Both the position numbers and the translations under genes were made by a program. A DNA stretch of 49,088 bases. It comes from Clostridia bacterium (lineage in GTDB: Bacteria; CBDUZB01; JAGLHV01). The stretch spans positions 1 through 49,088 of the forward strand of contig JAUVLC010000003.1 of assembly GCA_030595925.1 (NCBI GenBank), given 5' to 3'. The notes under the pieces are model-generated. The model was not told where the DNA came from. It saw only the letters and a program-made list of their open reading frames with translations, and made no database searches. Below are positions 9,503 to 36,133 of this stretch, piece after piece. How positions within the stretch are numbered: position 1 is the stretch's first letter; the number at the start of each line of letters is the position of its first letter.

Positions 9503-9504
9503 AG

Positions 9505-13432: not shown

Positions 13433-13565
13433 GCTGACAGATTTATTTTAGGGAAACATTTGTTTGCAAAATCATGGGTGGGGGTAGACAGGAAGGACGT
13501 ATTTTACAGACTATTTGGTAGAGAATAATTTAAATTTAACACAAATAATGAAGGGGATAATTTTT

Positions 13566-14174: not shown

Positions 14175-14209
14175 GATTGCAATAAACTCGTAGTGTTTGT
14201 TTTTTTATC

Positions 14210-14255
14210 TTGACAATCACCATAAAATATGGTTATATAAACATAGAATATGGTT
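14210..14255 (+). promoter_or_regulatory. Promoter with two palindromic operator boxes
   Basis: TTGACA at 14210; accataaaatatggt (from 14219) and acatagaatatggt (from 14241). Confidence 0.55.
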
Positions 14256-14274
14256 GTAAGAATCGGAGGCAATT

Positions 14275-15146: not shown

Positions 15147-15241
15147 ATAAAATTTGAACTTGGGTTTTTACAAGGAAATATCTTCCGAAAATTCAATAAA
15201 AGTATAAAAAAGTAATAAAAAACATTGATTTTAAAAAAATT

Positions 15242-15445
15242 ATGAATGATAAAAAAATTTGCCGATGGTTTGAAGTGTGTCCTCTTAAAAATTTTTACCA
15301 ACAAAAGAAAATAAATAAACAGTGGATTGAAGACTACTGTTGGGGAGATTATTCAAAGTGTGTCAGGAAAAAAATGGAAGAAGACAACTTATATCATCCG
15401 GACAATATGATGCCGGACGGAACAATTGACGAAAGTTTAAAATAA
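15242..15445 (+). CDS. Small Cys-rich hypothetical protein
   Basis: CRWFEVCP...YCWGDYSKCVR...HPDNMMPDG. Confidence 0.7.
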   Translation: MNDKKICRWFEVCPLKNFYQQKKINKQWIEDYCWGDYSKCVRKKMEEDNLYHPDNMMPDGTIDESLK

Positions 15446-15475
15446 AAGAGATTTATTTAAAGGAGGAAGAACAAA

Positions 15476-15742
15476 ATGCCTACATACGGGTATAAATGTG
15501 AAAAATGCGGTTATGAATTTGAAGAATTTCAGAATATTACAGCTCCACCGATTGAAAAATGTTCCCAATGTGATGGAGAAGTAAAACGCGTGATTGGAAC
15601 GGGAATGCAGGTGATTTTTAAAGGTTCGGGATTTTACGCAACGGATAACAAAAAGAGTGCTCCCACAGGCGGAACATGTTGTGGCAGGACCGAACGGTGT
15701 GATAAACCACCTTGCTCCGATACTGAAAGTTGTAAGAGATAA
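15476..15742 (+). CDS. FmdB-family zinc-ribbon protein
   Basis: MPTYGYKCEKCG, CSQC, FKGSGFYATD; strong RBS. Confidence 0.93.
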   Translation: MPTYGYKCEKCGYEFEEFQNITAPPIEKCSQCDGEVKRVIGTGMQVIFKGSGFYATDNKKSAPTGGTCCGRTERCDKPPCSDTESCKR

Positions 15743-15895
15743 TGGGGAGAGGGATAGGGTGAGGGGAAAAATGGTTTGTTGTGAGGTCGTTTGTTTTTCA
15801 AATATTCAAAAAAAATCGACAGGACAGAAAGATTTATGTAATGATTGTATGTAAAAATAAGATATATTTATTAGAAAAACATAATATCAAAAATT

Positions 15896-16135
15896 CTATG
15901 ATGCCTTGGAATGTAATTTAGCATACCTATCTACTAATTGACGAATCATTTTTTGATATTTTATGTGGTGTTGTCTGGCATAGTGTTTAAAAAATTCTAC
16001 GCTTGATTTACTTAAAGACAGTGTGATTTTTACAGTTTCCTGTGGAATGACCAATTCCTCCGGTGGTGGAAGAAAATCTTTAATTCTAACCATTTTTCCA
16101 ATGGGTTTATTCGAGTCAGTCATCTTTTTTTTCAT
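15896..16135 (-). CDS. BrnA-like (CopG/RHH) antitoxin
   Basis: DFLPPPEEL...KITLSLSKSSVEFFK...KYQKMIRQLVD; overlaps the BrnT gene. Confidence 0.8.
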   Translation of the reverse strand: MKKKMTDSNKPIGKMVRIKDFLPPPEELVIPQETVKITLSLSKSSVEFFKHYARQHHIKYQKMIRQLVDRYAKLHSKAS

Positions 16136-16403
16136 AGTATTGTTTCCCCTTTCTCCAATAGCCAGCACCGATTATCCTGATTTTTTCTTTACGATAAGTG
16201 AATCTGACCGTTAGAATTTTGCCTTTTACTTTTCCGACACAGAAAAATCTTTCTTCTTTTTTACTATGTTTTGAGTCATTATAAATTTTTCTTTTAATAT
16301 CTTTAAATGCTTTTGCAGCAGTGATGAAGTCAACGCCATGTTTATTAATATTGACGAATTCTTTTTCTAAATCCCAGATGAAATTACTAATATTAGCTAC
16401 CAT
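16116..16403 (-). CDS. BrnT-family toxin
   Basis: FIWDLEKEFVNINKHGVDF, DSKHSKKEERF, IRIIGAGYWRKG. Confidence 0.9.
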   Translation of the reverse strand: MVANISNFIWDLEKEFVNINKHGVDFITAAKAFKDIKRKIYNDSKHSKKEERFFCVGKVKGKILTVRFTYRKEKIRIIGAGYWRKGKQYYEKKDD

Positions 16404-16734
16404 AATAAAAGAATAACATAAGTATTGCCATTTGTCAATACAATTATATGTATAAATTTACAGAAAAAGAAATATCGATAGTAAAACAAAAATCCGGTAT
16501 TTTTTTCAATTGGATTAGCGAAAGCCGGCATTTAAAAAATAAATCGATAAAATGAGAAAAAGTATGTTATATTACGCATACTAACTGGTGTTTGTATATA
16601 ATAATTTAGAGCAAGTATTAATTATAACGACAGTTTATCATTAATTTCAGAAAAAACAGAAAAACATTAACTTATTATCTTAAGTCCTTCCCTTATTACT
16701 TACAAAACGCTGCATGTTTTTGACAGTATAGAGT

Positions 16735-17727
16735 ATGGCGAAATTATGCTCGAGGAAATTTATGGATAGTCCAATTTTCTTAATAGGTGCCGGATTTAAC
16801 GTAGATGCCAATTCACAAATACGTAGTCGCGAATATCGATATCCGCTCACCGGTGATTTGCTTGAACCATGCTTTGAGATCACGGAACTACCGGTTGGAA
16901 AGTCGATCGAAGACCTATTCCAAAACTCTATAGAGCAACGAGAAATATCTCCTTTACAGCGACTTTGCGATTTGGTGATGGGAGCTGATTACTATTTTGG
17001 CGGACAATTCACCAATGAGAATGAAAATATAGAGAACCCTTATAACCAATTTTTACAAAAATTCCGGGATTCTCACTTTATAACATTCAACTATGATTCA
17101 TTATTGGAAATACTGTTGTTCCATAAAAAAAGGTGGAAACCTGATGACGGATATGGCATTAATGTACACACGGAAATACGACCATTTGAACTTCCTAAAC
17201 ATTCAAATAATCTGGTACTACATCTACATGGTTCGTTTTGTGTAAATTCTGTAGAAGTCTATTTCGAAAAAGATAGAACAAGTTTGATAGAGTGGATGAA
17301 GCCTTTAGAAAAACCACAATATGTCTTTGATCCTCATTCAATAACTCATAGATTTTCTCCTTATGAGCGTATTCATTCTCGGTCATACAGGGATCCCTTT
17401 AAACGTGTTATTGCACCTATTCCGGATAAGGCAAAAAATATCAATTGTTCTTCTTTTGTGGTTGCTGTATATAAGAAGGCTATTTTCTTGATAAAACAAT
17501 GTGATACTATAGTTTCCATAGGTTACAGATTTGGCGAACAGGATGTTTCCTCGTATGAGTCTATCCTGAAAGCATTATCAGGATCAAACAAATCAAAAAG
17601 ATTAATCGTCATTTCACCCGATGCAAAGGAAATCGTCTCAAGAATTAAAAAAGATTACCATTTTGAGATCATACCATTAGAACTTACATTCGGTGGGTGG
17701 GCTTCTAAAGGATTTAGACTACCATAG
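16735..17727 (+). CDS. SIR2-like domain protein
   Basis: FLIGAGFN, ITFNYDSLLE, LHLHGS, IGYRF..QD motifs. Confidence 0.8.
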   Translation: MAKLCSRKFMDSPIFLIGAGFNVDANSQIRSREYRYPLTGDLLEPCFEITELPVGKSIEDLFQNSIEQREISPLQRLCDLVMGADYYFGGQFTNENENIENPYNQFLQKFRDSHFITFNYDSLLEILLFHKKRWKPDDGYGINVHTEIRPFELPKHSNNLVLHLHGSFCVNSVEVYFEKDRTSLIEWMKPLEKPQYVFDPHSITHRFSPYERIHSRSYRDPFKRVIAPIPDKAKNINCSSFVVAVYKKAIFLIKQCDTIVSIGYRFGEQDVSSYESILKALSGSNKSKRLIVISPDAKEIVSRIKKDYHFEIIPLELTFGGWASKGFRLP

Positions 17728-18029
17728 TTAGAAAATGAAAAGAGTGAAAAATGGTCGTTGCTAAAAAAGTTAAATAACTATTGAGAAATAGAAGATAGGT
17801 TTAAGATAATGAAATAATGGGTAGCCTTTTGGGGAAAACCTTGAAATGTGAAAATAGGGTTGGAAAAATTTTTAGAAAAAACTTTTGACTTTTTTTACTT
17901 ATTGAGTTATATTAGTCAATATCAGAAAAATAGAGGATCATTCTCTAATTTTAGGTTTTCTTTCTGGAATTGACAATTTTATATGTCTATGTAAATATGT
18001 CTTAACAAAATAAAAAGGAGGAGTAAATT

Positions 18030-18191
18030 ATGTCTATCGTATCGGAGTCGGAATTCAAAGGAAATCCCATGTTGGTCATTAAGAATGATGAAGAGGATAA
18101 ATACCCTTTTCAATTCGGATTAAGGAAGGCCAAGCTGATACTGGAGAATGTTGAAGAGATTAAGAAATTCGTGGAAAAAAACGATAAGTAG
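18030..18191 (+). CDS. Small hypothetical protein (53 aa), not in the ORF track
   Basis: Strong RBS aaggaggag; MSIVSESEFKGNPMLVIKNDEEDKYPFQFGLRKAKLILENVEEIKKFVEKNDK*. Confidence 0.8.
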   Translation: MSIVSESEFKGNPMLVIKNDEEDKYPFQFGLRKAKLILENVEEIKKFVEKNDK

Positions 18192-18265
18192 CCTTTAGAG
18201 ATTGTCAAAAGTATAATGGACACAGCTGAATGGGTGTAAGATGTTACTACTGGAGATTTTTATGG

Positions 18266-18305
18266 TGGCGAAGGCATACTACTTATAAGTAGTATGCCTT
18301 CGCCA
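18266..18305. repeat. Perfect 40-bp palindrome
   Basis: tggcgaaggcatactactta|taagtagtatgccttcgcca. Confidence 0.95.
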
Positions 18306-18366
18306 GAGATAAAATGAAAAAGGAATTTTTTTATACAGGGATAAAAAAGAAAATATTTTTTTTTGC

Positions 18367-18396
18367 TTGACAAATACTACTTATAAGTAGTATAAT
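18367..18396 (+). promoter_or_regulatory. Consensus promoter overlapped by a 20-bp palindromic operator
   Basis: TTGACA-18 bp-TATAAT; atactacttataagtagtat at 18374-18393; ATG only 8 nt after the -10 box. Confidence 0.85.
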
Positions 18397-18404
18397 TACG
18401 CAAG

Positions 18405-19103
18405 ATGAAGAATAAAATCTCTTATATTAAAAATGAACAGAAGAAAATAGCGGAGCTGGTAAAACGGAAATTTAAAAATTATTATTTAACAGGGGGTACC
18501 GCTTTATCTTTCTATTTTGAGCATGGGTTTTCCGAAGACCTGGATTTTTTTACTCAAGAGTATAAAAAAGAAGATGCAGACCAAATAATAAAGTTTGTTT
18601 CGAAAAATACCGGTTTTAAATTTAAGTTAGAGGGTGAACAGGACGATCCTAAGTTGATACCCATGAAAGTATATTTTTTAGAATTTAAGAGAGATTGTGT
18701 TTTAAAAGTAGACTTTGTTCAGGATTTTGCGAAGAATATCAAGAAAATAAAAAACGGACTGCATTCTATAGAAGATATCTATTTCAGAAAAATTATTGCG
18801 GCTATTGGAACAAAGAGAAAAGAGAGTACGACAGGGATGGTAATAGCTGGTGGACGTCAGACAGTGAAAGATCTTTTTGATATTTATTACTTATCAAAAA
18901 ATTACAAGACTATCTCGGACTTCTTTTTAAAATATTTTACTATCGATAAAGTGGAAAGATTTATTGCGTGGTATAGAGGGTTTAATAGGATAGATTTAAA
19001 ACTGGAATTGTTGGATTTGGTTGATGGAGTGGATTCAGGCAAGGTACTTAGATATCTTGATGATGAAATTTTAAAGAAACTGCCGGATAAGTTGATTGTG
19101 TGA
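18405..19103 (+). CDS. AbiEii/AbiGii-family nucleotidyltransferase toxin
   Basis: YYLTGGTALSFYFEHGFSEDLDFF, KDLFDIYYL. Confidence 0.88.
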   Translation: MKNKISYIKNEQKKIAELVKRKFKNYYLTGGTALSFYFEHGFSEDLDFFTQEYKKEDADQIIKFVSKNTGFKFKLEGEQDDPKLIPMKVYFLEFKRDCVLKVDFVQDFAKNIKKIKNGLHSIEDIYFRKIIAAIGTKRKESTTGMVIAGGRQTVKDLFDIYYLSKNYKTISDFFLKYFTIDKVERFIAWYRGFNRIDLKLELLDLVDGVDSGKVLRYLDDEILKKLPDKLIV

Positions 19104-19114
19104 GGTGATAAAAA

Positions 19115-19630
19115 ATGAAGATAAATTGGTTATGGGATACTCGACTGAACGAAAAAGATGTGAGGAGTATTTTGAAAAATGAGAAACATCCGAAGTTTGA
19201 TATTTATGCAGAGAAACTTCTTTCTCGCGTTTCCGACCCTGCGGTAGTTTTTGATATTATTAATCAAACAGCTTTTTGCAGGAGATGGCCGACTATAAAA
19301 AAAAGGATTAAAAAAAATCGCTGGCTTAAAGACAGAGTTCTTTTCTGGCAGACAATATACGAACGGGTTCACGAAAAATTAAAAGGACTTGGAATTAAAA
19401 TAAGGAAATCTCGGGAAGTAAAGATTCCTCCGGAAAGAATGAATTTAGCCCAACAGATAAGAGATATAAGAATGAATTTAGGATATACACAGAAGGAGAT
19501 AGCAAAAAAATTAGGGGTAATTCAGCAATATGTTTCTAAAATTGAGAGTGGTCGTGAAAATGTTTCAATAGATACTTTGAAGAGAATAGCGGAGGTGTTT
19601 AACAAAAAATTAATTGTTAAATTAAGGTAA
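19115..19630 (+). CDS. XRE-family HTH protein with N-terminal extension (putative antitoxin)
   Basis: C-terminal TQKEIAKKLGVIQQYVSKIESGRENVSIDTL; N-terminal WLWD motif. Confidence 0.85.
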   Translation: MKINWLWDTRLNEKDVRSILKNEKHPKFDIYAEKLLSRVSDPAVVFDIINQTAFCRRWPTIKKRIKKNRWLKDRVLFWQTIYERVHEKLKGLGIKIRKSREVKIPPERMNLAQQIRDIRMNLGYTQKEIAKKLGVIQQYVSKIESGRENVSIDTLKRIAEVFNKKLIVKLR

Positions 19631-19679
19631 ATGAATTAAAAGTATAAATTATTGGAGTCAGACTTGAAGAATGAAATTG

Positions 19680-19884
19680 GATTTTAAAAATTTTATTTGC
19701 GCAAGGCGGCTTTGGAAAAAATATGCCTGGGTATTTTGAAGTTCCCTCTTCCTGAGTGGAAGAGGGATAGGGTGAGGGAAAAAAAGGGCTTGTTATGAGG
19801 TAGTTCATTTATTTAAAAATAATTCGACAAAATAATAAAAATTATGTTATATTAAAAAAGGTGTTACAAACTTGAGCAAGTCTC
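19680..19884. repeat. Direct repeat copy 1, ending in an ISL3-type terminal repeat
   Basis: Near-identical to 28797-29100 apart from an indel of about 95 bp; ends tacaaacttgagcaagtctc. Confidence 0.9.
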
Positions 19885-20165
19885 AAAAATTTAATATATT
19901 TATTATGAAGGCTTCTTGTCCGTAATTTTAAGAAAAGCTAAAAAATTTGCTTAAAAGGTACTAAACAAATATAGAAAAAGAAGCAAAAGCAGTTTTAGTT
20001 TTCATTGCGAATAAAGAGTTGAAGATAACGGCAAAGTTTATGGTTGAAAGACTCAAATGTGCGCGGTTGGCAATAAGTATGCTGATAAAAGAGAGAATAC
20101 TTAAACAAAAGCACAGTAACTTATTACCTTAGGACCATTCCCTATTGCCTACCTCCCAAAAAAAC

Positions 20166-20195
20166 TTGACACTACCCCCCCTTTTTTTCTACAAT
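20166..20195 (+). promoter_or_regulatory. Putative cassette-array promoter (Pc-like)
   Basis: TTGACA-18 bp-TACAAT about 60 bp upstream of the first recombination point. Confidence 0.65.
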
Positions 20196-20230
20196 ACTGT
20201 AGTGTAGTTTTCTGAAAATAGAGTAACCAG

Positions 20231-20259
20231 ATAATATAATATAATATATAATGTTATGA
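20231..20259 (+). other. Putative attI site
   Basis: AT-rich run ending in GTTATGA with no attC hairpin; complementary, but for one base, to TCATAAT in the first attC. Confidence 0.55.
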
Positions 20260-20280
20260 GAAAAAAATAAAAGGATAAAA

Positions 20281-20661
20281 ATGAATATTATTATACCAAT
20301 ACTAATTGCTCTATTCGGATTAATTCTTGGTCATCAGTTGACTCTTAGGCGAGATTTTAAAAACAAAAAAAAGGAAATTCGCATAAATTATCTTATAGAA
20401 GCCTATAGGAAACTCGAAAGAGGAGCTATTCCAAACGCTAAAAAATTTGATAAAGGAGATTTTGAAAGTGCAATCGCAGATATACAAATGCTTGGTAACC
20501 CTGAGCAAGTTAACATAGCTTATGAGTTTGCTATTGAAGCGAGTCAAGACAATGGCTCGAAATTACAAAAATTACTGGAAAATATCCGGATGGAATTAAG
20601 AAACGAATTATTAATCAAAAATAATAAATTACCAAAGATAAGACCGTTTAGGATAAACTAA
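20281..20661 (+). CDS. Cassette 1: hypothetical protein with N-terminal TM helix
   Basis: 126-aa ORF with RBS between the putative attI and attC1. Confidence 0.75.
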   Translation: MNIIIPILIALFGLILGHQLTLRRDFKNKKKEIRINYLIEAYRKLERGAIPNAKKFDKGDFESAIADIQMLGNPEQVNIAYEFAIEASQDNGSKLQKLLENIRMELRNELLIKNNKLPKIRPFRIN

Positions 20662-20670
20662 TGAATGAAA

Positions 20671-20743
20671 TCATAATAACTCAATCGAGCGAATTTTTCC
20701 GTAGCTTCGCTGCTTCAAAAACCGCTCATTTCAGGCGTTATTT
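20671..20743 (+). other. attC site 1
   Basis: TCATAAT...gagcgaattttt..aaaaaccgctc...GTTATTT imperfect hairpin. Confidence 0.8.
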
Positions 20744-20810
20744 GTAAGAAATCAAGCTGGTAAATTGATTGATAAATGGTATATTTAACTACATATCAAA
20801 TTAATGTAGT

Positions 20811-21113
20811 ATGTCCTCTACTCTGTCCCCAGTTCCGGATGAATGGGACAGATTATATAATGTTGATTTTTTTATAATGATTAAAGATAAATATATTGGT
20901 CTTCAAATAAAGCCTGTAAATCAAGGAATTCAACTTTCTCAAATTTTTAAAGAAAGACGAATTCAAGAAAAAACACATCATAAATTTGAAGAAGAATTTG
21001 GTGGAAAAGTTTTTTATGCCTTTTCTTCAAAATCAAATGGTAAGAAAGTGATAGTAAACTTAGAAGTAATTGAAGAAATAAAAAAAGAAATCGAAAAATT
21101 GAAAAACACATAA
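20811..21113 (+). pseudogene. Cassette 2: C-terminal fragment of an MjaI-like restriction endonuclease
   Basis: PDEWDRLYNVDFFI..KYIGLQIKP (D...QxK nuclease motif); N-terminus missing. Confidence 0.6.
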
Positions 21114-21179
21114 TAAATCACTGCACTGGATTTTTATTCCGTTACGCTTCGTAAAAAATAGTGAGTTTCAGCGTTAGGT
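21108..21179 (+). other. attC site 2
   Basis: ACATAATaaatcactgcactggattttt...aaaaaatagtgagtttcagcGTTAGGT. Confidence 0.85.
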
Positions 21180-21211
21180 GGAGGAAAAACAATTAAATAA
21201 ATGGAGAAAAA

Positions 21212-21730
21212 ATGGATGATAAATTACAAAAAAGTATCGATCGTGCAATTGCTTTATTAAAAACTCCAAAAAAATACGAAAATTATATTTCAATAAAAAT
21301 AGTCCCTTTAGGTATAGATTGTTGTTGCTCTCATTGCCTGCCAGAAACATGGCGAAAAATTAATCAATACATAGCCCCTTGTGGTCCCGTAGGACATGAA
21401 GGGGATGCTTTGATTAAAAAGAATAAGAATGAATTTGTTTTTGAATCTCACGAGACTGGATTAGAATTTATAGTTTTGATAGATATCATTAAAAAATCGG
21501 CAGATTGTTTGAAATCAATAATTGAACTTATAACTGTATCCATAAAAGCTCTTTCTCAAGAGAAACGCAAACAACCGTTCCGAATGAAAATAGCCAAAAG
21601 ACAAATTATTCGAGGGGTGGTCGATGAAGAAAACTTAATAGAAATCGATATTCCTCTAACAAAAGATATCGAGAAACAATTGCTAAAGAAGTTAAAGAAA
21701 TTAGTCAATAAAAAACATAACAGGAAAACA
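21212..21730 (+). CDS. Cassette 3: hypothetical protein now fused in frame to RhuM
   Basis: First 173 aa of ORF 21212-22150; only ACATAAC (21715-21721) remains of its attC. Confidence 0.6.
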
Positions 21731-22735
21731 ATGGAATCAAACAGTGAAATAGTAATTTATAAAAACCCAGATGGTAATATTAAGATTGATGTTCGGCTCG
21801 AAGATGAAACTGTATGGGTATCGCAGGCACATATGTGCGAATTGTTTGACAAGAACAAGCGTACTATTTCAGAACACATTCGCAATATTTTTGAGGAGGG
21901 AGAACTGCAAGAAGAATCAGTTGTCCGGAAATTCCGGACAACTGCAGTAGATAGTAAAAACTACGATGTTAAATACTATAATCTTGATGTTATCATATCA
22001 GTAGGTTATCGTGTAAAATCAATACAGGGAACACAGTTTCGCATTTGGGCAACCAAGAGGTTAAAAGAGTATATCATTAAAGGTTTTGCCCTTAATGACG
22101 ATCGTTTTAAAACTGGTAATTCCATGAATTATTTCAATGAGTTGAAATAACGACTTCGGGAAATCCGCCTTTCTGAAAGGTTTTTCTATCAGAAAATAAA
22201 AGACATCTACTCAACCAGTATCGACTACGACCTAAAAGATGAAAAAACCATTGCTTTTTTTAAAGTTGTTCAAAATAAACTGCTCTGGGCTATCAGTACC
22301 CATACAGCCGCAGAACTTGTTTACAGGAGAGCAGACGCTTCTTTACCCTTATTGGGAATGCAGTCTTATGACAAGGATAGTGTTGGAAAAATCAGCAGAA
22401 ATGATGTCAGCATTGCCAAAAACTATTTAAATGAAGAGGAAATAAAACTTCTTGGTTTATTGGTCGAACAGTATCTTGCTTTTGCAGAAACAATGGCACA
22501 ACAGCATACACTAATGTACATGAAAGACTGGATTGGTAGGCTGGATAACATTTTGCAAATGAATGGCAGGAAATTACTCACTCATGCCGGAAAAATAAGT
22601 CATCAAATGGCTATTGAGAAATCAAATTAGGAATTAGAAAAATATAACGAAGAACAAAAAAGAATAACTCATGAACAAAATTTAAAAGAAATTGAAGAGG
22701 ATATAAAGAGATTAAAAAATGATACAGACACATAA
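21731..22735 (+). pseudogene. Cassette 4: RhuM-family protein with two in-frame stops
   Basis: MESNSEIVIY...YYNLDVIISVGYRVKS..GTQFRIWAT; TAA at 22148 and TAG at 22628; same frame continues to 22735. Confidence 0.88.
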
Positions 22736-22801
22736 CAAATCACTGCACTGGATTTTTACTCTACTGCGCTCCGTAAAAACCAGTGAGTTCAGTCGTTAGA
22801 T
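22730..22801 (+). other. attC site 3
   Basis: ACATAACaaatcactgcactggatttttac...gtaaaaaccagtgagttcagtcGTTAGAT. Confidence 0.9.
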
Positions 22802-23072
22802 GAGAAAAATGAATAAAAAGAAAATAATCTATCAAGCAAATGAGACTATTTATGGATATGAAGTCAGATCAAAAATATGGTATGAATATAAAATAGATAT
22901 TAAAATAGATGAATCAAATAAAATACCAGTAATCATTACATTAAATTTTCAAGATCAACATGATTTTATTGAAATTCCTAAAATCAAAATTATTAAGGCA
23001 GAAACGATTTCAAAAGCTTTCGTCAAAACAATAAAATATTTGAAAAGCTATGGGATGGAATTAAGGGTGTAA
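22800..23072 (+). CDS. Cassette 5: small hypothetical protein
   Basis: ORF fills the interval between attC3 and attC4; start may be 22809. Confidence 0.65.
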   Translation: MRKMNKKKIIYQANETIYGYEVRSKIWYEYKIDIKIDESNKIPVIITLNFQDQHDFIEIPKIKIIKAETISKAFVKTIKYLKSYGMELRV

Positions 23073-23074
23073 TG

Positions 23075-23149
23075 ATCTAACAACTCAATGGAGCGGATTT
23101 TGCTACGCCGCTTCGCGCCTCCGCAAAACCGCTGATTTTTGCGTTAAGC
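23075..23149 (+). other. attC site 4
   Basis: ATCTAAC (exact complement of the preceding GTTAGAT)...gcggattttgc..gcaaaaccgc...GTTAAGC. Confidence 0.9.
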
Positions 23150-23184
23150 AAATATAATATATAAATTGAAAGTATAAATAACCA

Positions 23185-23474
23185 ATGGAGGATAATGAAA
23201 AATACCTAAATGTTTTGATAAAACAGAAAGATTATTTTCAATATATATATGAACAGGAACAAAAAAGAGCAGTCAGTATAATTGCAGGAGCAAAAATATA
23301 TATTGGTTTTTTAATATTCATTGTTGGATCTATTTTTTTAAACTAATAACAGTAGATAAAATCATTAAATTATTCAATGATAGTTCTACATCTATATTGG
23401 GTAAAATAATGGGATTTACTATTATTCTATTATCAGGGGTTTTTTTAATAATAGCTTTTATCTTTACAATTTTA
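23185..23474 (+). pseudogene. Cassette 6: frameshifted, truncated membrane protein
   Basis: MEDNEKYL...KIYIGFLIFIVGSIF, frameshift in a T run near 23335, second TM segment, no attC. Confidence 0.55.
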
Positions 23475-23618
23475 GTTTTAAAAGTAGATTTTGTTCAGGA
23501 TTTTGCGAAGAATATCAAGAAAATAAAAAGGGGATGAAGTTTCTCTTAAAATAACCCGTATACAAAATAAAAATATGTTACTTCGTGTTATACAGGTTGG
23601 GAATGAGAAAAAGATAAA

Positions 23619-26285
23619 ATGTATAAAGAGTTAACTGCTATTTGTTTGCCGAATCAAAGGATAGAACTGGAATGGCAGGAAATAGAAGACCCGATAAATA
23701 AGAATCAGGAATTAATGCAAAACGAATTATACAAAAGATCCAGGGAAGACTTTAGGTTTTTTCTTCTGTTGTTAGGGTTTTGTAATCAATCTGTCCCATT
23801 ATCAGCAAGTTTAGATTATTTTAGAAAGTTAACGGGGTTGTACGTAAAAAAACTTACGCAAATACCTGATATTGAAGTTTTACGTGAACGGGTGGATATA
23901 ATTTTAACAGTCGATGAGATTGACGATTTTTTGTTCCGGCTTCCATTTATGGTTGGAGTAGAGTACATAAACTCATCTTTTCTTGAACGTATCTGGTTGA
24001 AGTTAAACATAACATTTAGAAATAAATTAAAAACCTATAAAGGTTCTGTTGATGAATTTATAAAAACTTTCAGTCCGGATGTTCATCTTGCAGGACGGGT
24101 TTATTTCCATTTGGTAGAAAGTAAAAAAGAGGATTTACCTTTTGCTTTTTTAGCAACATATTCTACAGGTTTAAACAATCAGGGGAAATCGAAACATGTT
24201 CCCTTAAAGTATGCCTTAACAGAATACAGTAAAAATAGCAAAAAACTACTGAAACTTTTATCTGCCGTTTATTTAGCCGCTAAAGAAAGCAGGATTGTTT
24301 CTATGCTGATTGAAAGTGGGGAGATATTTTACCCAATAGCATTATCGGTTAAAGATGCATACGATATTTTAAAGGAAATTCCTATTTATGAAAAATTCGG
24401 TATACTTTGCCGGATTCCTAATTGGTGGAAAAATAGAACAAGCACTCTAAAACTTGATATAAGTGTCGGCAATATCTCTCCCTCGTTTCTTAGCAAGAAC
24501 TCGATTCTTGATTTTAAAATGGACCTTTTATTTGGCGGCAGCGAATTATCGGAAGATGAAGTAAGAAAGCTGTTGAATGAATCAGAAGGGCTTGCCTTTA
24601 TCAAAGGGAAATGGGTGGAGGTTGACCCCAAAAAACTCGAAAAAACACTTGAAGCTTATGAAAAAGCACAACAATTGATGGAACAGGGTAATTTGAGTTT
24701 AAAGGATGCCATGCATTTGCAACTTAACTTACAGAAAGACCTTGGTATTAGTGACGATGATACAATCAATATTTCTAATGGGGAATGGCTTAAATCCGTT
24801 GTTGAAAAACTTCATAAACCTGAATTGATAGACTCAGTAATTCCTGCAAAAAATTTCCTGGCAAAACTTCGGCCATATCAGCAGAAAGGGTTGAACTGGC
24901 TTTATTTTCTGCATTCTTTGCAGTTTGGCGCTTGTTTGGCAGACGATATGGGACTGGGGAAAACTATACAACTGTTAGCTTTTCTAAGTACTCTTAAAGC
25001 AAATAAGCAAAATTCTACAAACCTTCTGATAATACCTGCTTCTCTGATTTCCAACTGGATTAACGAAATACACAGGTTTTCACCGGAAATAAAGTATTAC
25101 ATCGCCCATCCGTTATTTGAGAAAAAAAGGGACAATGTTTGCATGGACAAATATTTTATAGACAAATATGATATCGTAATAACAACTTATTCTTTATCCA
25201 AAAAGTATGACTGGCTTAAATTGTACAAATGGAACTATGTTATTTTAGATGAAGCTCAAATCATTAAAAATCCTGGTACAAAACAAACAAAAGCCGTTAA
25301 AAATCTGGATGCAAACAATAGAATAATAATGACTGGTACACCTATTGAAAACCGTTTAGGTGATATTTGGTCGTTATTTGATTTTTTAAACCCCGGGTTG
25401 CTTGGCAGTATCAAAGAATTTTCAGATTTTTCCAAAGGACTAAAAGACAATCTAAACGGATATGCAAAGCTGAAAAAAATTACGTCTCCATATATATTAA
25501 GAAGGTTGAAAACCGACAAGTCCGTTATTTCTGATTTGCCTGATAAAATTGAGATGAAAACGTATTCAGATTTAACTAAAAAACAAGTTATTCTTTACGG
25601 CAATCTTGTAGAAGAACTAAAAACAAAGCTTGAAGATGAAAGTGAGGGGATTAAGAGAAAAGGCTTAATTCTTGCTTCTCTTATGAAATTTAAACAGCTT
25701 TGTAATCATCCGGATCAATATTTGGGAAGAGATGAATATTCTGAACTTGACAGTGGCAAATTTTTTAGGCTTCGCGAAATATGTGAAACAATTTATGAAA
25801 AAAGAGAAAGAGTTTTAGTATTTACGCAATTCAAAGAAATTACTGAACCTCTCAAAAAATTTCTTGAAACAGTGTTTAAACATAAAGGGTTGGTTTTTCA
25901 TGGCAGTACGTCTGTTAAAAAACGTAAGGAAATTGTAGAAAAGTTTCAAAAACATGAATATGTTCCATTTATGGTATTATCTATTAAAGCAGGTGGAGTT
26001 GGTTTAAATCTGACATCTGCAAATCACGTTATTCATTTTGACAGATGGTGGAACCCGGCAGTTGAAAACCAGGCAACTGATCGAGCTTTTCGGATAGGGC
26101 AGAAAAAAAATGTGGTAGTTCATAAGTTTATTACCAGAGGTACACTGGAAGAAAAGATTGATGCCATGCTTCAGGAAAAAGCGAATTTGTCAAATGAGAT
26201 TATTCAAAGTACAAATGAGGCCTGGATAACCGAAATGAACAACGATAAACTAATAAACCTGTTTACACTGTCGCTGCAAAAATAA
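23619..26285 (+). CDS. SNF2-family (SWI2/SNF2) helicase/ATPase
   Basis: LRPYQQKG, LADDMGLGKT, DEAQ, TGTPIEN, GGVGLNLT, WWNPAVENQATDRAFRIGQ. Confidence 0.95.
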   Translation: MYKELTAICLPNQRIELEWQEIEDPINKNQELMQNELYKRSREDFRFFLLLLGFCNQSVPLSASLDYFRKLTGLYVKKLTQIPDIEVLRERVDIILTVDEIDDFLFRLPFMVGVEYINSSFLERIWLKLNITFRNKLKTYKGSVDEFIKTFSPDVHLAGRVYFHLVESKKEDLPFAFLATYSTGLNNQGKSKHVPLKYALTEYSKNSKKLLKLLSAVYLAAKESRIVSMLIESGEIFYPIALSVKDAYDILKEIPIYEKFGILCRIPNWWKNRTSTLKLDISVGNISPSFLSKNSILDFKMDLLFGGSELSEDEVRKLLNESEGLAFIKGKWVEVDPKKLEKTLEAYEKAQQLMEQGNLSLKDAMHLQLNLQKDLGISDDDTINISNGEWLKSVVEKLHKPELIDSVIPAKNFLAKLRPYQQKGLNWLYFLHSLQFGACLADDMGLGKTIQLLAFLSTLKANKQNSTNLLIIPASLISNWINEIHRFSPEIKYYIAHPLFEKKRDNVCMDKYFIDKYDIVITTYSLSKKYDWLKLYKWNYVILDEAQIIKNPGTKQTKAVKNLDANNRIIMTGTPIENRLGDIWSLFDFLNPGLLGSIKEFSDFSKGLKDNLNGYAKLKKITSPYILRRLKTDKSVISDLPDKIEMKTYSDLTKKQVILYGNLVEELKTKLEDESEGIKRKGLILASLMKFKQLCNHPDQYLGRDEYSELDSGKFFRLREICETIYEKRERVLVFTQFKEITEPLKKFLETVFKHKGLVFHGSTSVKKRKEIVEKFQKHEYVPFMVLSIKAGGVGLNLTSANHVIHFDRWWNPAVENQATDRAFRIGQKKNVVVHKFITRGTLEEKIDAMLQEKANLSNEIIQSTNEAWITEMNNDKLINLFTLSLQK

Positions 26286-26311
26286 TTTTATGGCAGGAGG
26301 CTGATAAGATT

Positions 26312-27166
26312 ATGGGATACTATTATTATTCAGGATTTCCACGGTATGTTTCTGTCGGCGAAAAACGAGTAAAAGCGCAGAAAAAATTGAAACAATTGAA
26401 GAAAAAAAATTCTCACATTACACCTTTGATTTTACATGGAACCAAACTTGCCCATACCTGGTGGGGTAAAGCATGGAATAAAAATCTTGAAAAATATGCG
26501 GACTATTCAAATAGGATCGGCAGAGGCCGCAGTTACATTAGAAACGGTTTTGTTTTTGATTTCAAAATAAACCCGGGGGAAATAACATCGCTTGTGCAAG
26601 GCACAGGTTCGCGTCTTTATAAAATAGCAATAAAAATAAACCCATTGAGCAAAAAAACATGGAACGAAATAAAGAAAAAATGTGAAGGGAAAATTGAATC
26701 TTTAGAGGAACTTATTGAAGGTAAGTTTCCCAAAGATCTCATTGAAATATTTACTACAAAAGGGAAAGGGTTATTTCCGTCGCCGAAAGAGATTAAGTTT
26801 AGCTGCAGTTGCCCGGATTGGGCAAATATGTGCAAGCATATAGCAGCAACGCTTTATGGGGTTGGAGTAAAATTGGATGATGATCCCAAACTTTTTTTCC
26901 TATTACGCAAAGCTGAAATGGACGATTTGATAACGGAAACTTTGCGGGATAAATCAAAAAAGATGCTTAAAAAAGCGGAGAAAAAGACATCCCGTGTGAT
27001 TGATGATTTGGATGCAATCAAAATGTTTGGTATTAATATTGATGAAAAAATTAGTTCAGGCAAGATACCCATATTAACGAAAACAAAAAGAAAAAAAAGT
27101 ATTATTAAAACAAAGGCAACTAAAAAAAAAGCTGAAAATCAAACACAAAAAGAAAAGCGGGCATAA
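26312..27166 (+). CDS. SWIM zinc-finger protein
   Basis: CSCPDWANMCKHIAA; NRIGRGRSY; usual partner of bacterial SNF2. Confidence 0.92.
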   Translation: MGYYYYSGFPRYVSVGEKRVKAQKKLKQLKKKNSHITPLILHGTKLAHTWWGKAWNKNLEKYADYSNRIGRGRSYIRNGFVFDFKINPGEITSLVQGTGSRLYKIAIKINPLSKKTWNEIKKKCEGKIESLEELIEGKFPKDLIEIFTTKGKGLFPSPKEIKFSCSCPDWANMCKHIAATLYGVGVKLDDDPKLFFLLRKAEMDDLITETLRDKSKKMLKKAEKKTSRVIDDLDAIKMFGINIDEKISSGKIPILTKTKRKKSIIKTKATKKKAENQTQKEKRA

Positions 27167-27185
27167 TTTGAAAAAACATAAGAAA

Positions 27186-27510
27186 AAGGGGGACATTGTT
27201 AAGAAGTTAAATAACTATTAACAATAACTTTGCTTAAAGACTTAATCAATCTGATAACTAAAAAATTAGTGGTTGAGGTAGTAGAATTAAAAGGAAACAG
27301 AAGGGGTGGAAAAATAACTAAAGCCACAGCTTTGATATCATATACATCGGGCAAAGCTATTTGGAAGAGTAGGGTATTGCAATAAGCTTAGAATTAAATA
27401 ACAGCAGTGCCAGTATAAGCATAGCATGTAATTGAGGGAAAAAATAACAGAGAGGGATGCAGGGGCAAAAAGTATTCTTACCTATTTAACTATTTAAGAA
27501 CGTCCCCCTT
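27186..27510. mobile_element. 325-bp element with 28-bp inverted ends, degenerate transposase remnant
   Basis: aagggggacattgttaagaagttaaata vs tatttaactatttaagaacgtccccctt (24/28 complementary). Confidence 0.6.
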
Positions 27511-27648
27511 ATTTTCCCTTATTTTCCATGAAATGAGAAAAGATTTGTGGAGATTGGAAGGCAAATTGAATGCAAGTGATATGTTTGGAGCGCGATAATT
27601 ATCGGGAAAATCATAGATATTTTAAAATCGATAATAGGAAGTAAATAA

Positions 27649-28656
27649 ATGGAACAAAACTCAGAAATAATAATTTATACAGCACCAGATGGCTCAACAA
27701 AATTGCAAGTACAATTAGAAGATGAAACCGTTTGGCTTACTCAGGAACAAATGGCAGTGCTTTTTGGGAAAGGAAGAACTACTATAACTGAACATATTGG
27801 CAACATCTTCAAAGAGGGCGAACTGAATGAAAAAGAGGTGTGTCGGCTTTTCCGACATACCACAAAACACGGTGCTATAGAAGGCAAAACTCAAAACAAG
27901 CAAGTCAAATATTATAATCTCGATGTCATAATTTCAATAGGTTATCGTGTAAAATCGCCTCAAGGTACAAAGTTTCGCCAATGGGCAACAAAAAGGATTC
28001 ACGAGTATATTGTAAAAGGTTTTACAATGGATGATGACCGTTTAAAGCAAGAAGGAGCACGATCACGGTATTTTGAAGAGCTTCTTCAAAGAATTCGGGA
28101 TATCAGAAGTAGCGAAAGAAACTTTTACCAGAAAGTAACCGACATTTATGCAACCAGCATTGATTACAAAAATGATAACGTTTTAACTAAAGAGTTTTTT
28201 GCTACAGTGCAAAATAAGATGCACTTTGCTATTCATGGACAAACTGCGGCTGAGATGATAAATGAAAGAATTGATGCAGATAAACCCTTTTTAGGGCTTA
28301 CGAATTTTAAAGGAAAGTATATAACAGCACGAGATATTAGTATTGCCAAAAATTATCTCTCAGAAGATGAACTCAAACAGTTAAATCTTATAGTCTCTAT
28401 GTATCTTGATTTTGCAGAGTTACAAGCAACAAACGGCAGGTTAATGAAAATGGAGGACTGGATTCAAAAGCTTGATGCTTTCTTAAAAATAAGTGAAAAA
28501 GAACTTTTAACAAACACAGGAAAAGTCAGTCACCAAAAAGCAATTGAGAAAGCAAAAATTGAATATGAAAAATATAGAAAGGCAGAAGATAAAAAATATA
28601 TTTCCGATTTTGATCGTGAAATTAAAAAACTAATTAAGAATGATAAAAACACATAA
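27649..28656 (+). CDS. RhuM-family protein (intact cassette gene)
   Basis: YYNLDVIISIGYRVKSPQGTKFRQWAT, RIRDIRSSERNFYQK, AKNYL; followed by an attC. Confidence 0.92.
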   Translation: MEQNSEIIIYTAPDGSTKLQVQLEDETVWLTQEQMAVLFGKGRTTITEHIGNIFKEGELNEKEVCRLFRHTTKHGAIEGKTQNKQVKYYNLDVIISIGYRVKSPQGTKFRQWATKRIHEYIVKGFTMDDDRLKQEGARSRYFEELLQRIRDIRSSERNFYQKVTDIYATSIDYKNDNVLTKEFFATVQNKMHFAIHGQTAAEMINERIDADKPFLGLTNFKGKYITARDISIAKNYLSEDELKQLNLIVSMYLDFAELQATNGRLMKMEDWIQKLDAFLKISEKELLTNTGKVSHQKAIEKAKIEYEKYRKAEDKKYISDFDREIKKLIKNDKNT

Positions 28657-28722
28657 CAATTCACTGCACTGGATTTTTACTCCGCTGCGCTGCGTAAAAA
28701 CTAGAGGATTCAATCGTTATGC
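28651..28722 (+). other. attC site 5
   Basis: ACATAACaattcactgcactggatttttac...gtaaaaactagaggattcaatcGTTATGC; same family as attC2 and attC3. Confidence 0.85.
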
Positions 28723-28796
28723 AAAATAAATGGGAAATAAAAATGAAATATATTACACAAAGAACAGTGTCATTATCTTTCCTTTATATTGGGTTA

Positions 28797-29100
28797 GATT
28801 TTAAAATTTTTATTTGCGCAAGGCGACTTTGGAGAAAATATGCCTGGGTATTTTAACATTGAATTGAATAGAGTCAATGATAAATTCTGTGCCGGAACCT
28901 TTTTACAAACAACTTAATTTTGTAATTCCCTGGAGACTGCTACAGGGTTATCTTGAAGTTTCCTCTTCCTGAGTGGGAGAGGGATAGGGTGAGGGGGGAA
29001 ATGGCTTGTTATGAGGTAGTTCATTTATTCAAAAATAATTCGACAAAATAATAAAATTTATGTTATATTAAAAAAGTTGCTACAAACTTGAGCAAGTCTC
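28797..29100. repeat. Direct repeat copy 2, ending in an ISL3-type terminal repeat
   Basis: Ends aaaaagttgctacaaacttgagcaagtctc, matching the ends of the IS at 37231-38653. Confidence 0.9.
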
Positions 29101-29150
29101 TAAATAAAAGATATACTAAATGAGGTGGGTTTTGAAAATTTTTCGGAAGA

Positions 29151-29600
29151 ATGTTTAAAAAGGGGGTAAAAATGAGAAACGGTAAAAATAAAAAGGGCGT
29201 AGATCTAAAAGAGAATAGAAAATGTCAACGGCGAAATAAATATCTTTTTGCTTTTTGTCAATACCCTTCTGGAAGAAGGATGTTGGATGTACAAGGTAAT
29301 CCAGTCGAAATCGAAGAAAATATTGTGTGGGATGCTGGCGGAGGAGGAGTAATGATTGAAAGAGAAAAGTTTATTTCTACTCGAGAGAAAATATTAATGG
29401 AGATATATTTTCCTACGGATGAGGTAAACAACACTATCATTTCGGTTTTTGCTGAAGGAGAAGTGTCCTGGGTAAAGAAAATACAAAAAAATAATTGTTT
29501 TAAAGGGAGTAATAAATACCGGGTGGGAATAAAATTTAATGATATTATAGAAGAGGATAAGAAAAATATTATTAAATACGTTAAGAAAAAAATCATCTAA
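29151..29600 (+). CDS. PilZ-domain protein
   Basis: RKCQR (RxxxR), DAGGGG (DxSxxG-like), GEVSWVK, YRVGIKF. Confidence 0.8.
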   Translation: MFKKGVKMRNGKNKKGVDLKENRKCQRRNKYLFAFCQYPSGRRMLDVQGNPVEIEENIVWDAGGGGVMIEREKFISTREKILMEIYFPTDEVNNTIISVFAEGEVSWVKKIQKNNCFKGSNKYRVGIKFNDIIEEDKKNIIKYVKKKII

Positions 29601-29650
29601 GATGAAATTGAATTTTAGAGGTAATAATGTTTGTTTTTTAATAATTAATT

Positions 29651-31129
29651 ATGGGTAAACCAATAAAAGTTAATTTATTTTTTAAATTTGTTTTGATCAT
29701 TTTTTTGATAAATATTATTCCTTTTATTATTTTGATGTGGTTTTCAAAAGTTAAAGGAATTAAAATTATAAGAGAAGAATTAGAGGTGAGGGCTAATTCT
29801 TTAGCTACAAAGGTTGCCTTTGAAAGTAAGTATGGGGTATTAAATAATAACAAAGAATTTTTGGATGGGGTTATTCAACAAGTATTTCTAATAGAAAAAG
29901 ATATTATTTTAGTTAGAATTACAAATGAAGAAGATATGATTTTAGCTGAAAAACTCAGAAAACCAAAGAATCTTCCTTTAAAATTTAGTATTACGGTTCC
30001 TATTAGAATAAAAAATTTTTTTATATATAAAAAACATCTGAAATTTCCTTCTCAAAAACAAGTTCAAAGAGTGGTAGGAAAAAATATAGGGAAAGTCGAG
30101 TTAACTGTTTCTGTCACGGATATGTATATGCTTAAAGCAAAGAAAGCAAGAAAAGAATTCTTTTTCTTGTTTTTTTTAATTATTATGATAGATATGCTTG
30201 GAGGTGTTTTTTTAATAAAGATTACTGTTGATCCAATTAAACGTTTAGTGAAAGGAACAAAAATAATTGCTGGAGGCGATCTAAATTATCAGGTGGAAGT
30301 TTTTTCCTCGGATGAAATAGGGTTGCTAACTGGTTCCTTTAACGAGATGACAAAAAAATTAAAAAAGTCACAAAATAATTTGACCCAGAGAAGAAAGAAA
30401 CTGGAAGAAAAAACTTGGGAATTAGAGTTAAAAAACAAAGAAATGGAGATATTTATTTATAGTGTTTCTCATGACTTAAAAGCTCCCTTGGTTGTAGTAG
30501 ATGGATTTGCGGCAAATTTACATACTAATTGCAAAAACAGGTTAGGGAAAAAAAACATTTATTATTTGGAACGGATTCGTGCCAATATTGATCAAATGGA
30601 ATCTTTGATAGAAGATTTACTTGAACTTTCCCGTGTTGGGAGGGTTAAAGGAAATTTAGAATTTGTAAATATCGTAAAGATAATAAATTTATCCAGAGAG
30701 ATGTTTTCAACTGCGTTGGAAAAAAAAGAAATAAGATTTTATCTGAAGGGGCCTTTTCCTTTAGTCTGGGGAGATTGCAATGGGATTAAACAGGTATTTG
30801 ACAATTTGATTGGTAATGCTGTCAAATTTATTGGCGATAAAAAATATCCTGAAATTAAAATAGGTTATTACAATGATGATGAAAATTATTGGACATTTTA
30901 TATTAAAGATACGGGTATTGGAATTTCTTCCGGGTATCACGAAAAAATATTTGAAGCTTTTCATCGGTTAAAAGATATAGAAACAGAAGGAACCGGTGTG
31001 GGGCTATCTATTGTGAAGAAGATTATTGATAATTATGGTGGAAAAATATGGGTAGAGTCAGAAGAAGGAAAAGGAACTATTTTTTATTTTACCCTCCTAA
31101 AAAAATCAAAAGATGATTTACCGTCTTGA
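29651..31129 (+). CDS. Membrane sensor histidine kinase (HAMP-HisKA-HATPase)
   Basis: 2 TM helices, DEIGLL..SFNEM, SVSHDLKAPL, NLIGNAVKF, DTGIGI, GTGVGLSI. Confidence 0.95.
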   Translation: MGKPIKVNLFFKFVLIIFLINIIPFIILMWFSKVKGIKIIREELEVRANSLATKVAFESKYGVLNNNKEFLDGVIQQVFLIEKDIILVRITNEEDMILAEKLRKPKNLPLKFSITVPIRIKNFFIYKKHLKFPSQKQVQRVVGKNIGKVELTVSVTDMYMLKAKKARKEFFFLFFLIIMIDMLGGVFLIKITVDPIKRLVKGTKIIAGGDLNYQVEVFSSDEIGLLTGSFNEMTKKLKKSQNNLTQRRKKLEEKTWELELKNKEMEIFIYSVSHDLKAPLVVVDGFAANLHTNCKNRLGKKNIYYLERIRANIDQMESLIEDLLELSRVGRVKGNLEFVNIVKIINLSREMFSTALEKKEIRFYLKGPFPLVWGDCNGIKQVFDNLIGNAVKFIGDKKYPEIKIGYYNDDENYWTFYIKDTGIGISSGYHEKIFEAFHRLKDIETEGTGVGLSIVKKIIDNYGGKIWVESEEGKGTIFYFTLLKKSKDDLPS

Positions 31130-36104: not shown

Positions 36105-36133
36105 GGATGATAGTTCAAAAAATTGGGAGAAAC

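Follow-up and report, generated by a model that had tools for sequence, protein, structure and literature searches.

A probable integron-type cassette array at a repeated promoter–attI-like module, with no integrase in the assembled genome

Contig C50 of the metagenome-assembled genome (MAG) G000, whose 49,088 bases were analyzed in their entirety and are referred to here as the window, carries five attC sites that follow small open reading frames (ORFs) downstream of a promoter-bearing module with an attI-like end, which we call the head. We estimate a probability of about 80% that these elements form a genuine integron-type cassette array that is docked at a chromosomal attI-type site with its own strong promoter and has no integrase either beside it or elsewhere in the assembled genome. 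G000 (2.6 Mb, 193 contigs, 97% complete) belongs to a phylum that is represented in our genome collection by four species-level genomes of a single genus, namely G000 and its congeners G001, G002, and G003; all of them are MAGs (completeness 97, 97, 89, and 86%). Contig C50 encodes PFK, IscS/NifU, PRPP synthetase, and ribosomal protein L25, all of them ordinary housekeeping functions, which places the array in the chromosome. Between 80 and 95% of the sampled sequence words from positions 19600–24000 were also found in six public runs from four studies, one of these runs possibly being the source sample, and a single contig of public run X4 covers positions 20286–22617 with two differences.

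Detection and structure of the attC sites

All five attC sites begin where the initial annotation of the window had placed them (Table 1), and each starts at or over the stop codon of an ORF on the plus strand. GTTA is present at the 3′ end of every site, and the 5′ box ends in AAC in three of the five; in attC1 and attC2, the sequence reads AAT instead of AAC, as had been annotated. The proposed division into two subfamilies is reproduced by BLAST, with sites 2, 3, and 5 alike at 83–88% and sites 1 and 4 at 77%, and the same searches with the window sites returned further copies on other contigs of the genome.

Two covariance models were used for detection. Model R1 consists of the five window sites and two sites from other contigs of G000; model R2 consists of 15 sites, among them the attC sites of aadA2 and orfF from plasmid pCTX-M3, and leaves out both the five window sites and a near-twin on contig C159. 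R2, which is a home-built model and not that of IntegronFinder, recovered the five annotated sites at their exact ends with 48.8–73.7 bits, and its next-best match in the window scored 12.2 bits. With R1, we found 15 sites on 10 contigs of G000, which provides the additional copies that the initial annotation had suggested looking for, as well as five and three sites in two of the congeners and none in the third. Contigs C135, C21, C25, and C136 carry single attC sites, i.e., scattered cassettes.

The relationship of these sites to those of classical integrons is evident from cross-detection. R1 finds the attC sites of the class-1 integron of pCTX-M3 at their exact ends (aadA2, 36.5 bits; orfF, 19.9 bits), with only a marginal match to that of dfrA12 (10.4 bits, E value 1.4); the dfrA12 site, which lies outside the training set of R2, is detected by R2 with 36.4 bits. 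In each of two unrelated genomes, R2 also detects a site next to a true IntI gene (29.6 and 18.6 bits), and both sites are divergently oriented, as expected. The second attC site on C159 shares 80% identity over 60 nt with the aadA2 attC and matches 2692 plasmid records; in the single record opened, that of pCTX-M3, the match is located directly behind aadA2 in the gene order intI1-dfrA12-orfF-aadA2-qacEdelta1-sul1. Rfam at gathering thresholds yielded no match in the window. A home-made scan for NNNNAAC...GTTNNNN combined with a folding filter was discarded as too noisy, giving 75 candidates in the window and nothing usable beside true IntI genes.

The sites are imperfect palindromes whose structure is better conserved than their sequence. 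When 25 sites were aligned, 92.8% of the cells were paired, as opposed to 29–47% with the partners slid; compensatory cells numbered 70 compared with 7–26 in the slid controls, and 11 of the 18 pairs had changed on both sides. The TAAC/GTTA end-box helix is paired in 94.9% of its cells and the L-box helix in 90.9%, with both-sided changes in six of the eight pairs of the latter. The layout comprises the TAAC/GTTA box, an unpaired spacer of 5/6 nt, and an L box of 3 + 5 pairs split by one unpaired base; beyond the L box come a G-C pair, a top-strand A that stays unpaired (a T in the bottom strand), and a variable stem. The aadA2 attC of the class-1 integron aligns column for column with the window sites. 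The extrahelical bases on the bottom strand, which the initial annotation had regarded as essential, are present at the same positions as in the aadA2 attC (column 16 and the A of the "GA" motif), and the minimum-energy folds of the bottom strand contain a bulged T in attC3 and attC4 and a bulged G in attC1. By sequence and predicted structure, the five sites are genuine attC sites of the canonical kind.

The head module and the insertion of cassettes

The promoter that had been annotated at the start of the array is present at positions 20166–20195 (TTGACA-18-TACAAT); it agrees with the consensus at 11 of 12 positions, more than any other candidate between 19600 and 29200. It is part of a head that occurs in exactly 12 copies in G000 and in six and three copies in two of the congeners; the third has none. 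Of the four genomes of the genus, the three that have heads are also the three that have attC sites, and G002 has neither. In general, a head consists of TTGACA and TATAAT, spaced by about 17 nt, followed by a conserved leader of 50 nt (...GTGTAGTTTT.TGAAAATAGAGTAACCAGATAAT...) and TAAT(G/A)↓TTA, where the arrow marks the putative point of exchange. The TTGAC of the −35 box is kept in 11 of the 12 copies, the copy on contig C5 reading TTGTCA. All 12 heads of G000 end in TAAT(G/A)↓TTA and share no sequence beyond it. A different gene or cassette lies behind each copy, including a pair of methylase and MvaI/BcnI-type restriction enzyme that ends in an attC site, a deaminase-domain protein, and a PNPOx-like protein, and heads are placed also after an attC site within an array (C139 and the G003 contig C201). 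The lack of a hairpin fold in the head (z-score −0.27) rules out that it is a long hairpin and fits a double-stranded attI-type partner.

The distribution of the head appears to be narrow. A search of species-representative genomes with a 21-nt head core returned six stretches, of which four are full heads in the records of the congeners and two match only in part and by chance (about 11 bits); among metagenome contigs, there were three stretches, all of them partial (13–15 bits) and none with IntI. No head beside an intI gene and no head outside the genus was found in either data set. One of the heads is located, together with two cassettes, on C159 (positions 1–16610), a plasmid- or ICE-like (integrative and conjugative element) contig that also encodes a TrwB-like coupling protein, ParA, and two ThsB-type TIR proteins; the head on the G003 contig C373 is 99% identical to that of C159.

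In an integron cassette, the bases that follow G↓TT stem from the cassette's own attC site and therefore complement its R″ box. Two such pairs had been pointed out in the initial annotation: GTTAGAT and ATCTAAC match at seven of seven positions, and the pairing of GTTATGA with TCATAAT is likewise present, at six of seven. The five junctions of the window score 6, 5, 6, 7, and 5 out of 7, and their variable triplets score 3, 2, 2, 3, and 1 out of 3. Across three genomes, the variable triplet is perfect in 12 of 19 junctions, and 47 of the 57 positions match; neither figure was reached in any of 200,000 shuffles. The complementarity between the start of a cassette and the R″ box of its own attC site indicates that the cassettes were inserted by exchange at G↓TT, and the perfect junctions between head and first attC in 9 of 10 cases suggest that they entered at the G↓TT of the head. 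Two junctions that seemed poor rose to seven of seven after R2 had located the true first attC site behind the respective heads. The weak last junction of the window fits the interpretation of "cassette 5" as a composite (see below). The junction logic points to the attI-like site annotated at the start of the array as the putative point of entry (Table 1), and the same junctions suggest its role as an attI site.

The same locus in related species

Nearly identical heads occupy the orthologous locus in G000, G001, and G003, which corresponds to a platform with variable cassettes in related species. Synteny of the left flank in G001 and G003 extends to the homolog of window positions 17970–18295, behind which the head follows directly, succeeded by attC sites; the right flank that is conserved in all three congeners begins at window position 29101. 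The first cassettes of the three species contain ORFs of 126, 93, and 131 amino acids (aa) and show no DNA likeness beyond the first few dozen bases; they were judged to be unrelated from DNA alignment, translations, and the limits of BLAST. Three unrelated first cassettes behind a shared head imply that cassettes were replaced, once the species had split, at a platform that lacked an integrase. In none of the three species is there an intI gene beside the orthologous head.

An intergenic region that precedes the heads of the congeners is conserved in the window, where it contains a perfect 40-nt palindrome (18266–18305), whose center recurs 98 nt downstream as a 20-nt palindrome (18374–18393).

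Search for an integrase

The window encodes no tyrosine recombinase, in agreement with the initial annotation. When true IntI proteins were compared with contig C50 by tblastn, there was no match at E values up to 10; neither an intI gene nor a remnant of it is present among the repeats upstream of the head, where the annotation would have expected it, nor at any other head copy with assembled upstream DNA. The search for intI elsewhere in the genome, which had been proposed as a check, was negative as well: no protein of G000 or of the other three genomes of the phylum exceeded the cut-off of the TIGR02249 profile (265 bits). The best protein of G000 reached 91.9 bits for the matched stretch and 145.9 bits for the whole protein. 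Proteins over the cut-off were thus found in 0 of 4 genomes of the phylum, compared with 8 of 61 in a wider sample.

G000 encodes three tyrosine recombinases. The two full-length proteins (295 and 297 aa) score as XerD (372 bits, cut-off 329.6) and XerC (XerC-like, 332.8 bits, cut-off 335.15), and reach 145.9 and 126 bits with TIGR02249; the gene of the XerC-like protein adjoins topA. Homologs of XerC and XerD are the only tyrosine recombinases common to all four genomes. The third recombinase, a protein of 174 aa encoded on C159, was rejected as a candidate for the missing enzyme: it consists of the catalytic domain only, its gene lies beside ParA/TrwB-like genes, and it is absent from the congeners, among them G001 and G003 with their heads and attC sites.

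A cluster of attC sites without an integron integrase is known as a CALIN (Cury et al. 2016, PMC4889954). The array falls under this definition because it consists of genuine attC sites and cassettes without a nearby integron integrase; four of the sites lie within 2.5 kb (20671–23149) and the fifth is located 5.5 kb further on, and the assignment made in the initial annotation is upheld. An intI gene beside attI, by which complete or sedentary integrons are recognized, is absent.

Interpretation and alternative explanations

If the array is indeed of the integron type, the head would act as a double-stranded attI-like docking site, which would capture circular cassettes via the folded bottom strand of their attC sites and transcribe them. 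The recombinase would work in trans; IntI may have been missed by assembly or binning, may reside on a visiting mobile element, or may have been lost. The array in G000 would by now be largely inert and in decay. Tentatively, the genus may even be viewed as harboring a "distributed integron", in which many promoter–attI modules (12, 6, and 3 per genome), each capturing and expressing its own cassettes, many of them with defense genes, and none with a linked integrase, would be served by one unlinked recombinase in trans, either an IntI hidden from the assemblies or, as a bolder suggestion, XerC/XerD.

Several observations weigh against a genuine integron-type array. Junctions between consecutive attC sites are perfect in only three of nine cases. 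Public contigs over positions 17500–30500 contained no clean excision or empty-site joint (attC R′ to next R′); because these contigs are short and unitig-like, the missing joints say nothing about excision. Folding energies of the bottom strand alone are unremarkable, with z-scores of −1.16, −0.87, −2.86, −2.33, and −1.83 for attC1 to attC5, of which those of attC1 and attC2 are weak, as compared with −3.62 for aadA2. The end boxes of attC2 are unpaired in its minimum-energy fold, and the first unpaired base of the bottom strand is a G only in attC1 and a C in the other four sites. The putative attI role of the head rests on junction logic; the spacing of blocks within heads varies by 2–13 nt among the copies, and the copy in the window has a 10-nt AT insertion relative to the others. 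Among five IntI-bearing genomes, R1 gave a match in one (E value 0.54) and nothing convincing; R1 is too lineage-specific to serve on IntI-bearing genomes outside the lineage. R2 has a match beside IntI at only 2 of 10 distinct IntI loci; the majority of these loci lie at the end of a contig and include little of an array. Finally, the absence of intI is weak evidence, suggestive rather than proven, because all genomes of the phylum are MAGs, from which short, repeat-rich contigs get lost, and because the IntI genes in the other MAGs examined are mostly located on short contig ends.

Other joints were present in the public contigs. Those connecting 23469 with 19993 and 23392 with 28785 are accounted for by the paralogous loci on C139 and C104; those leading from 18421 to 19847 or 29063 involve a repeated end of an insertion sequence (IS).

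It is unlikely that the cassettes were inserted by a visiting integrase into ordinary attG-type GWT sites and that the head is merely a promoter module of the lineage without a dedicated docking site. Integrases do insert cassettes at GWT, such cassettes are expressed near resident promoters, and small CALINs or single cassettes (SALINs) may arise in this manner (bioRxiv 10.1101/2022.09.11.507474); moreover, the C159 attC with its 80% identity to a class-1 attC would be compatible with a visitor. However, in all 10 head junctions examined, the exchange falls on the same G↓TT, at one fixed position within a conserved module of 85 nt, and nine of these junctions are perfect; all 12 heads diverge exactly at TAAT(G/A)↓TTA. 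In addition, the head at this locus is conserved in three species while the cargo changes, and heads co-occur with attC sites in the same three of four genomes.

There is also little to recommend an exchange of attC-like sites by a recombinase other than IntI and lacking its specific domain, such as the housekeeping XerC/XerD. Their homologs are the sole tyrosine recombinases shared by the four genomes of the phylum, in none of which an IntI was found; yet G002 possesses both Xer genes and has neither heads nor attC sites. In their geometry, the sites are fully canonical attC sites, and this geometry is linked to the extra domain of IntI (PMC4889954); the variable block spacing of the head leaves no dif-like core of fixed spacing. 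A fuzzy search with a dif core gave only weak, AT-rich matches with 4–5 mismatches and no clear dif site for comparison.

The initial annotation had explained the array as a classical integron that was stranded when IS activity destroyed an intI gene directly upstream of the head. An IS-end-like sequence and direct repeats are indeed present upstream (19677–19906), the array is decaying, and one proposed origin of CALINs is of this kind (PMC4889954). Nevertheless, we consider this origin very improbable. The head is a dispersed module of 12 copies, none of which has intI in its assembled upstream DNA, and the contig lacks even a remnant; in G001 and G003, the head follows the homolog of 17970–18295 so directly that there is no room for intI, and the first cassettes differ among the three species. 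The annotation is therefore supported in part: it was right about the CALIN and its decay and wrong about their origin.

The notion that the hairpins are transcription terminators or repetitive extragenic palindromic (REP)-like repeats, to which their position directly behind ORFs might lend itself, is refuted by the cross-detection of true class-1 attC sites in both directions and by the complementarity between cassette starts and R″ boxes (0 of 200,000 shuffles), and none of the five sites is among the five terminator-like sites of the region or has a T run.

Cassettes, decay, and neighboring elements

Judging from its sequence, the array in G000 is partly decayed, as the initial annotation had recognized from fewer features: to the AAT boxes can be added the degenerate L′ arm of attC5, the stops in a RhuM gene, the fragment of a restriction enzyme, the composite cassette 5, and the truncated cassette 6 (Table 1). 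The RhuM gene of cassette 3 is broken by in-frame stops at 22148 (TAA) and 22628 (TAG). In contigs of the public runs X4, X5, and X6, the TAA at 22145–22148 reads GAA, together with a neighboring A>C change; the stop at 22148 may be strain-specific, and the gene may be open at that codon in other strains.

Table 1. Features of the cassette array and its surroundings in the window.
Feature	Positions	Strand	Description
Left flanking direct repeat	19677–19906	+	19677–19737 and 19729–19888; 19848–19906 resembles an ISL3-type IS end
"Up" region	19922–20163	+	Upstream of the head; repeated twice on C139 with 92–94% identity; no ORF ≥50 aa, no IntI match
Head	20164–20259	+	Sigma-70-type promoter, conserved leader, attI-like end TAATG↓TTATGA; putative crossover between G20253 and T20254
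Cassette 1	20254–20737	+	ORF 20281–20661 (126 aa, no family match) and attC1
attC1	20671–20743	+	R″ TCATAAT, R′ GTTATTT; R2 49.5 bits; bottom-strand fold with bulged G as in the aadA2 attC
Cassette 2	20738–21173	+	ORF 20811–21113 (100 aa); similarity to MjaI-type type II restriction enzymes confined to their C-terminal part
attC2	21108–21179	+	R″ ACATAAT, R′ GTTAGGT; R2 57.4 bits
Cassette 3	21174–22795	+	RhuM-family gene with an extra N-terminal region of ~170 aa; ORFs 21212–22150 and 22352–22630
attC3	22730–22801	+	R″ ACATAAC, R′ GTTAGAT; R2 73.7 bits; fold z-score −2.86; best-formed of the five
Cassette 4	22796–23143	+	ORF 22800–23072 (90 aa, no family match); start TTAGAT versus R″ ATCTAAC 7/7
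attC4	23075–23149	+	R″ ATCTAAC, R′ GTTAAGC; R2 48.8 bits; fold z-score −2.33
Composite "cassette 5"	23144–28716	+	Patchwork of ~5.6 kb
attC5	28651–28722	+	R″ ACATAAC, R′ GTTATGC; R2 55.0 bits; L′ arm degenerate
Cassette 6 stub	28717–28793	+	ATG at 28744; truncated at 28794 by the right direct-repeat copy
Right flanking direct repeat	28794–29121	+	Extra 91-nt piece 28855–28945; ISL3-like end 29064–29121

"Cassette 5" encodes an SNF2 helicase (23619–26285, ZorD/DpdE-like), a SWIM protein (26312–27166), and an intact RhuM protein (27649–28656), and no further attC site was detected within it in the R1 and R2 scans. Its first part (23144–23474) is a remnant with homologs on C104 and C139, the latter of which runs straight into an "up" region and a head. 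Just upstream of the SNF2 gene, at 23475–23534, there is a copy of a 60-nt piece of the AbiEii gene (18699–18758) with 95–98% identity. A multi-copy repeat of about 340 bp is located at 27172–27514 and has 44-nt inverted ends (27170–27213 and 27483–27526).

Copies of the 340-bp repeat occur on at least seven other contigs (three each on C157 and C121, two on C135, and one each on C155, C8, C113, and C46), often near heads or adjoining genes with a Yip1 domain; the copy on C155 overlaps the 3′ end of a gene with Y1-transposase and DnaA_C domains. On contig C104, at about 10200–10560, a short attC-like site that was reported by neither R1 nor R2 is followed by the homolog of the cassette remnant 23144–23402. 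The element that truncates cassette 6 at 28794 also interrupts this homolog, after TATATTGGG.

The defense content suspected in the initial annotation is supported only in part: RhuM matches the PADLOC candidate system PDC-S05, the SNF2 protein is ZorD/DpdE-like, and cassette 2 encodes a fragment of a type II restriction enzyme. The proteins of cassettes 1 and 4 match nothing. A small variable region of the defense type lies upstream of the array and comprises a SIR2-like gene (16735–17727), AbiEii (18405–19103), and a helix-turn-helix (HTH) protein (19115–19630).

The IS end and the repeats noted upstream of the array are present, the stretch at 19848–19906 resembling the end of an ISL3-family IS located at 37231–38681 (transposase 37312–38541, minus strand). 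The flanking direct repeats, for which a target duplication was considered and not adopted, hold such an IS end and are not conserved in the congeners. Solo copies of the ISL3 end are located at 19848–19906 and 29064–29121, and contigs C61, C63, and C178 carry others at their ends. Just ahead of the ISL3 element, a nucleotidyltransferase/HEPN pair forms a module of the toxin–antitoxin type (36107–37104). At the beginning of the window, the adjacent ORFs 27–410 and 437–922 correspond to the first and second half of the ABC_sub_bind family and look like a split gene; an unsplit homolog of 325 aa, followed by a TonB-dependent receptor, is encoded on contig C121.

Comparison with known systems

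Roughly half of the reported CALINs reside in genomes that lack IntI, and for 95% there is no intI pseudogene in the vicinity (PMC4889954). Like other CALINs, the array has at least two genuine attC sites that bound single-ORF cassettes, no IntI nearby, and IS elements in close vicinity. It differs from them in keeping a promoter and an attI-type head, and in that this head is a module of 12 copies, genus-specific as far as searched, which occupies an orthologous locus with different cargo in three species. IntegronFinder clusters attC sites over a distance of 4 kb and would probably report four sites and a single one, because attC5 lies 5.5 kb from attC4.

The array shares with sedentary chromosomal integrons, such as the superintegron of Vibrio, a fixed platform with variable cassettes in related species (PMC4889954; 10.1101/2022.09.11.507474), a mutual resemblance of the attC sites within the genome, and cassettes mostly of unknown or defense-type function (for defense, see 10.1101/2024.07.02.601686). 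By contrast, its platform lacks intI, and the genome has 12 heads with arrays of about 1–5 cassettes instead of one long array.

In comparison with the class-1 attC sites of aadA2, orfF, and dfrA12 (pCTX-M3, NC_004464.2), the order of boxes and the geometry are the same, and the models detect each other's sites; the window sites are richer in AT, with T/A stems, have a C instead of a G as the first unpaired base of the bottom strand in four of five cases, and carry AAT in two. By eye, attI1 of pCTX-M3 has no sequence likeness to the head.

In the integration of CTX phage, XerCD recombines a folded single strand of phage DNA with a double-stranded site, and the pdif modules of Acinetobacter plasmids are Xer-dependent modular genes bounded by short recombination sites. 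The array resembles these systems in its modular genes and short recombination sites and in a recombinase that would be encoded elsewhere, whereas its borders are canonical attC hairpins without a dif-like 11-6-11 core.

Single cassettes at genomic GWT sites (SALINs at attG) are expressed when they are located near promoters (bioRxiv 10.1101/2022.09.11.507474). In both cases, the cassettes are scattered away from an integrase and their expression hinges on a nearby promoter; most insertions in G000, however, are found at one fixed position of a conserved, repeated module and not at a loose GWT target. The portions of the literature covered by our search contained no description of a multi-copy promoter–attI module without an integrase.

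Biological implications

Clusters of attC sites without an integrase are common and are usually dismissed as debris. Such a reading fails in the present case, because the docking site has been conserved and multiplied, sister species still carry different cargo at it, and no integrase could be found. If an ordinary intI gene were to reside among the unbinned reads, the finding would shrink to an unusual but conventional chromosomal integron with scattered copies of attI. A head combined with attC3 or attC4 constitutes a compact, testable pair of sites from a phylum that is known only by MAGs. Should the heads function as attI-type sites, an integron would not have to be confined to a single locus, and one enzyme, possibly other than IntI, could serve many promoter-equipped landing pads across the genome. 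This would bear on the spread of cassettes outside of integrons and on the question of what recombines CALINs in genomes that lack IntI.

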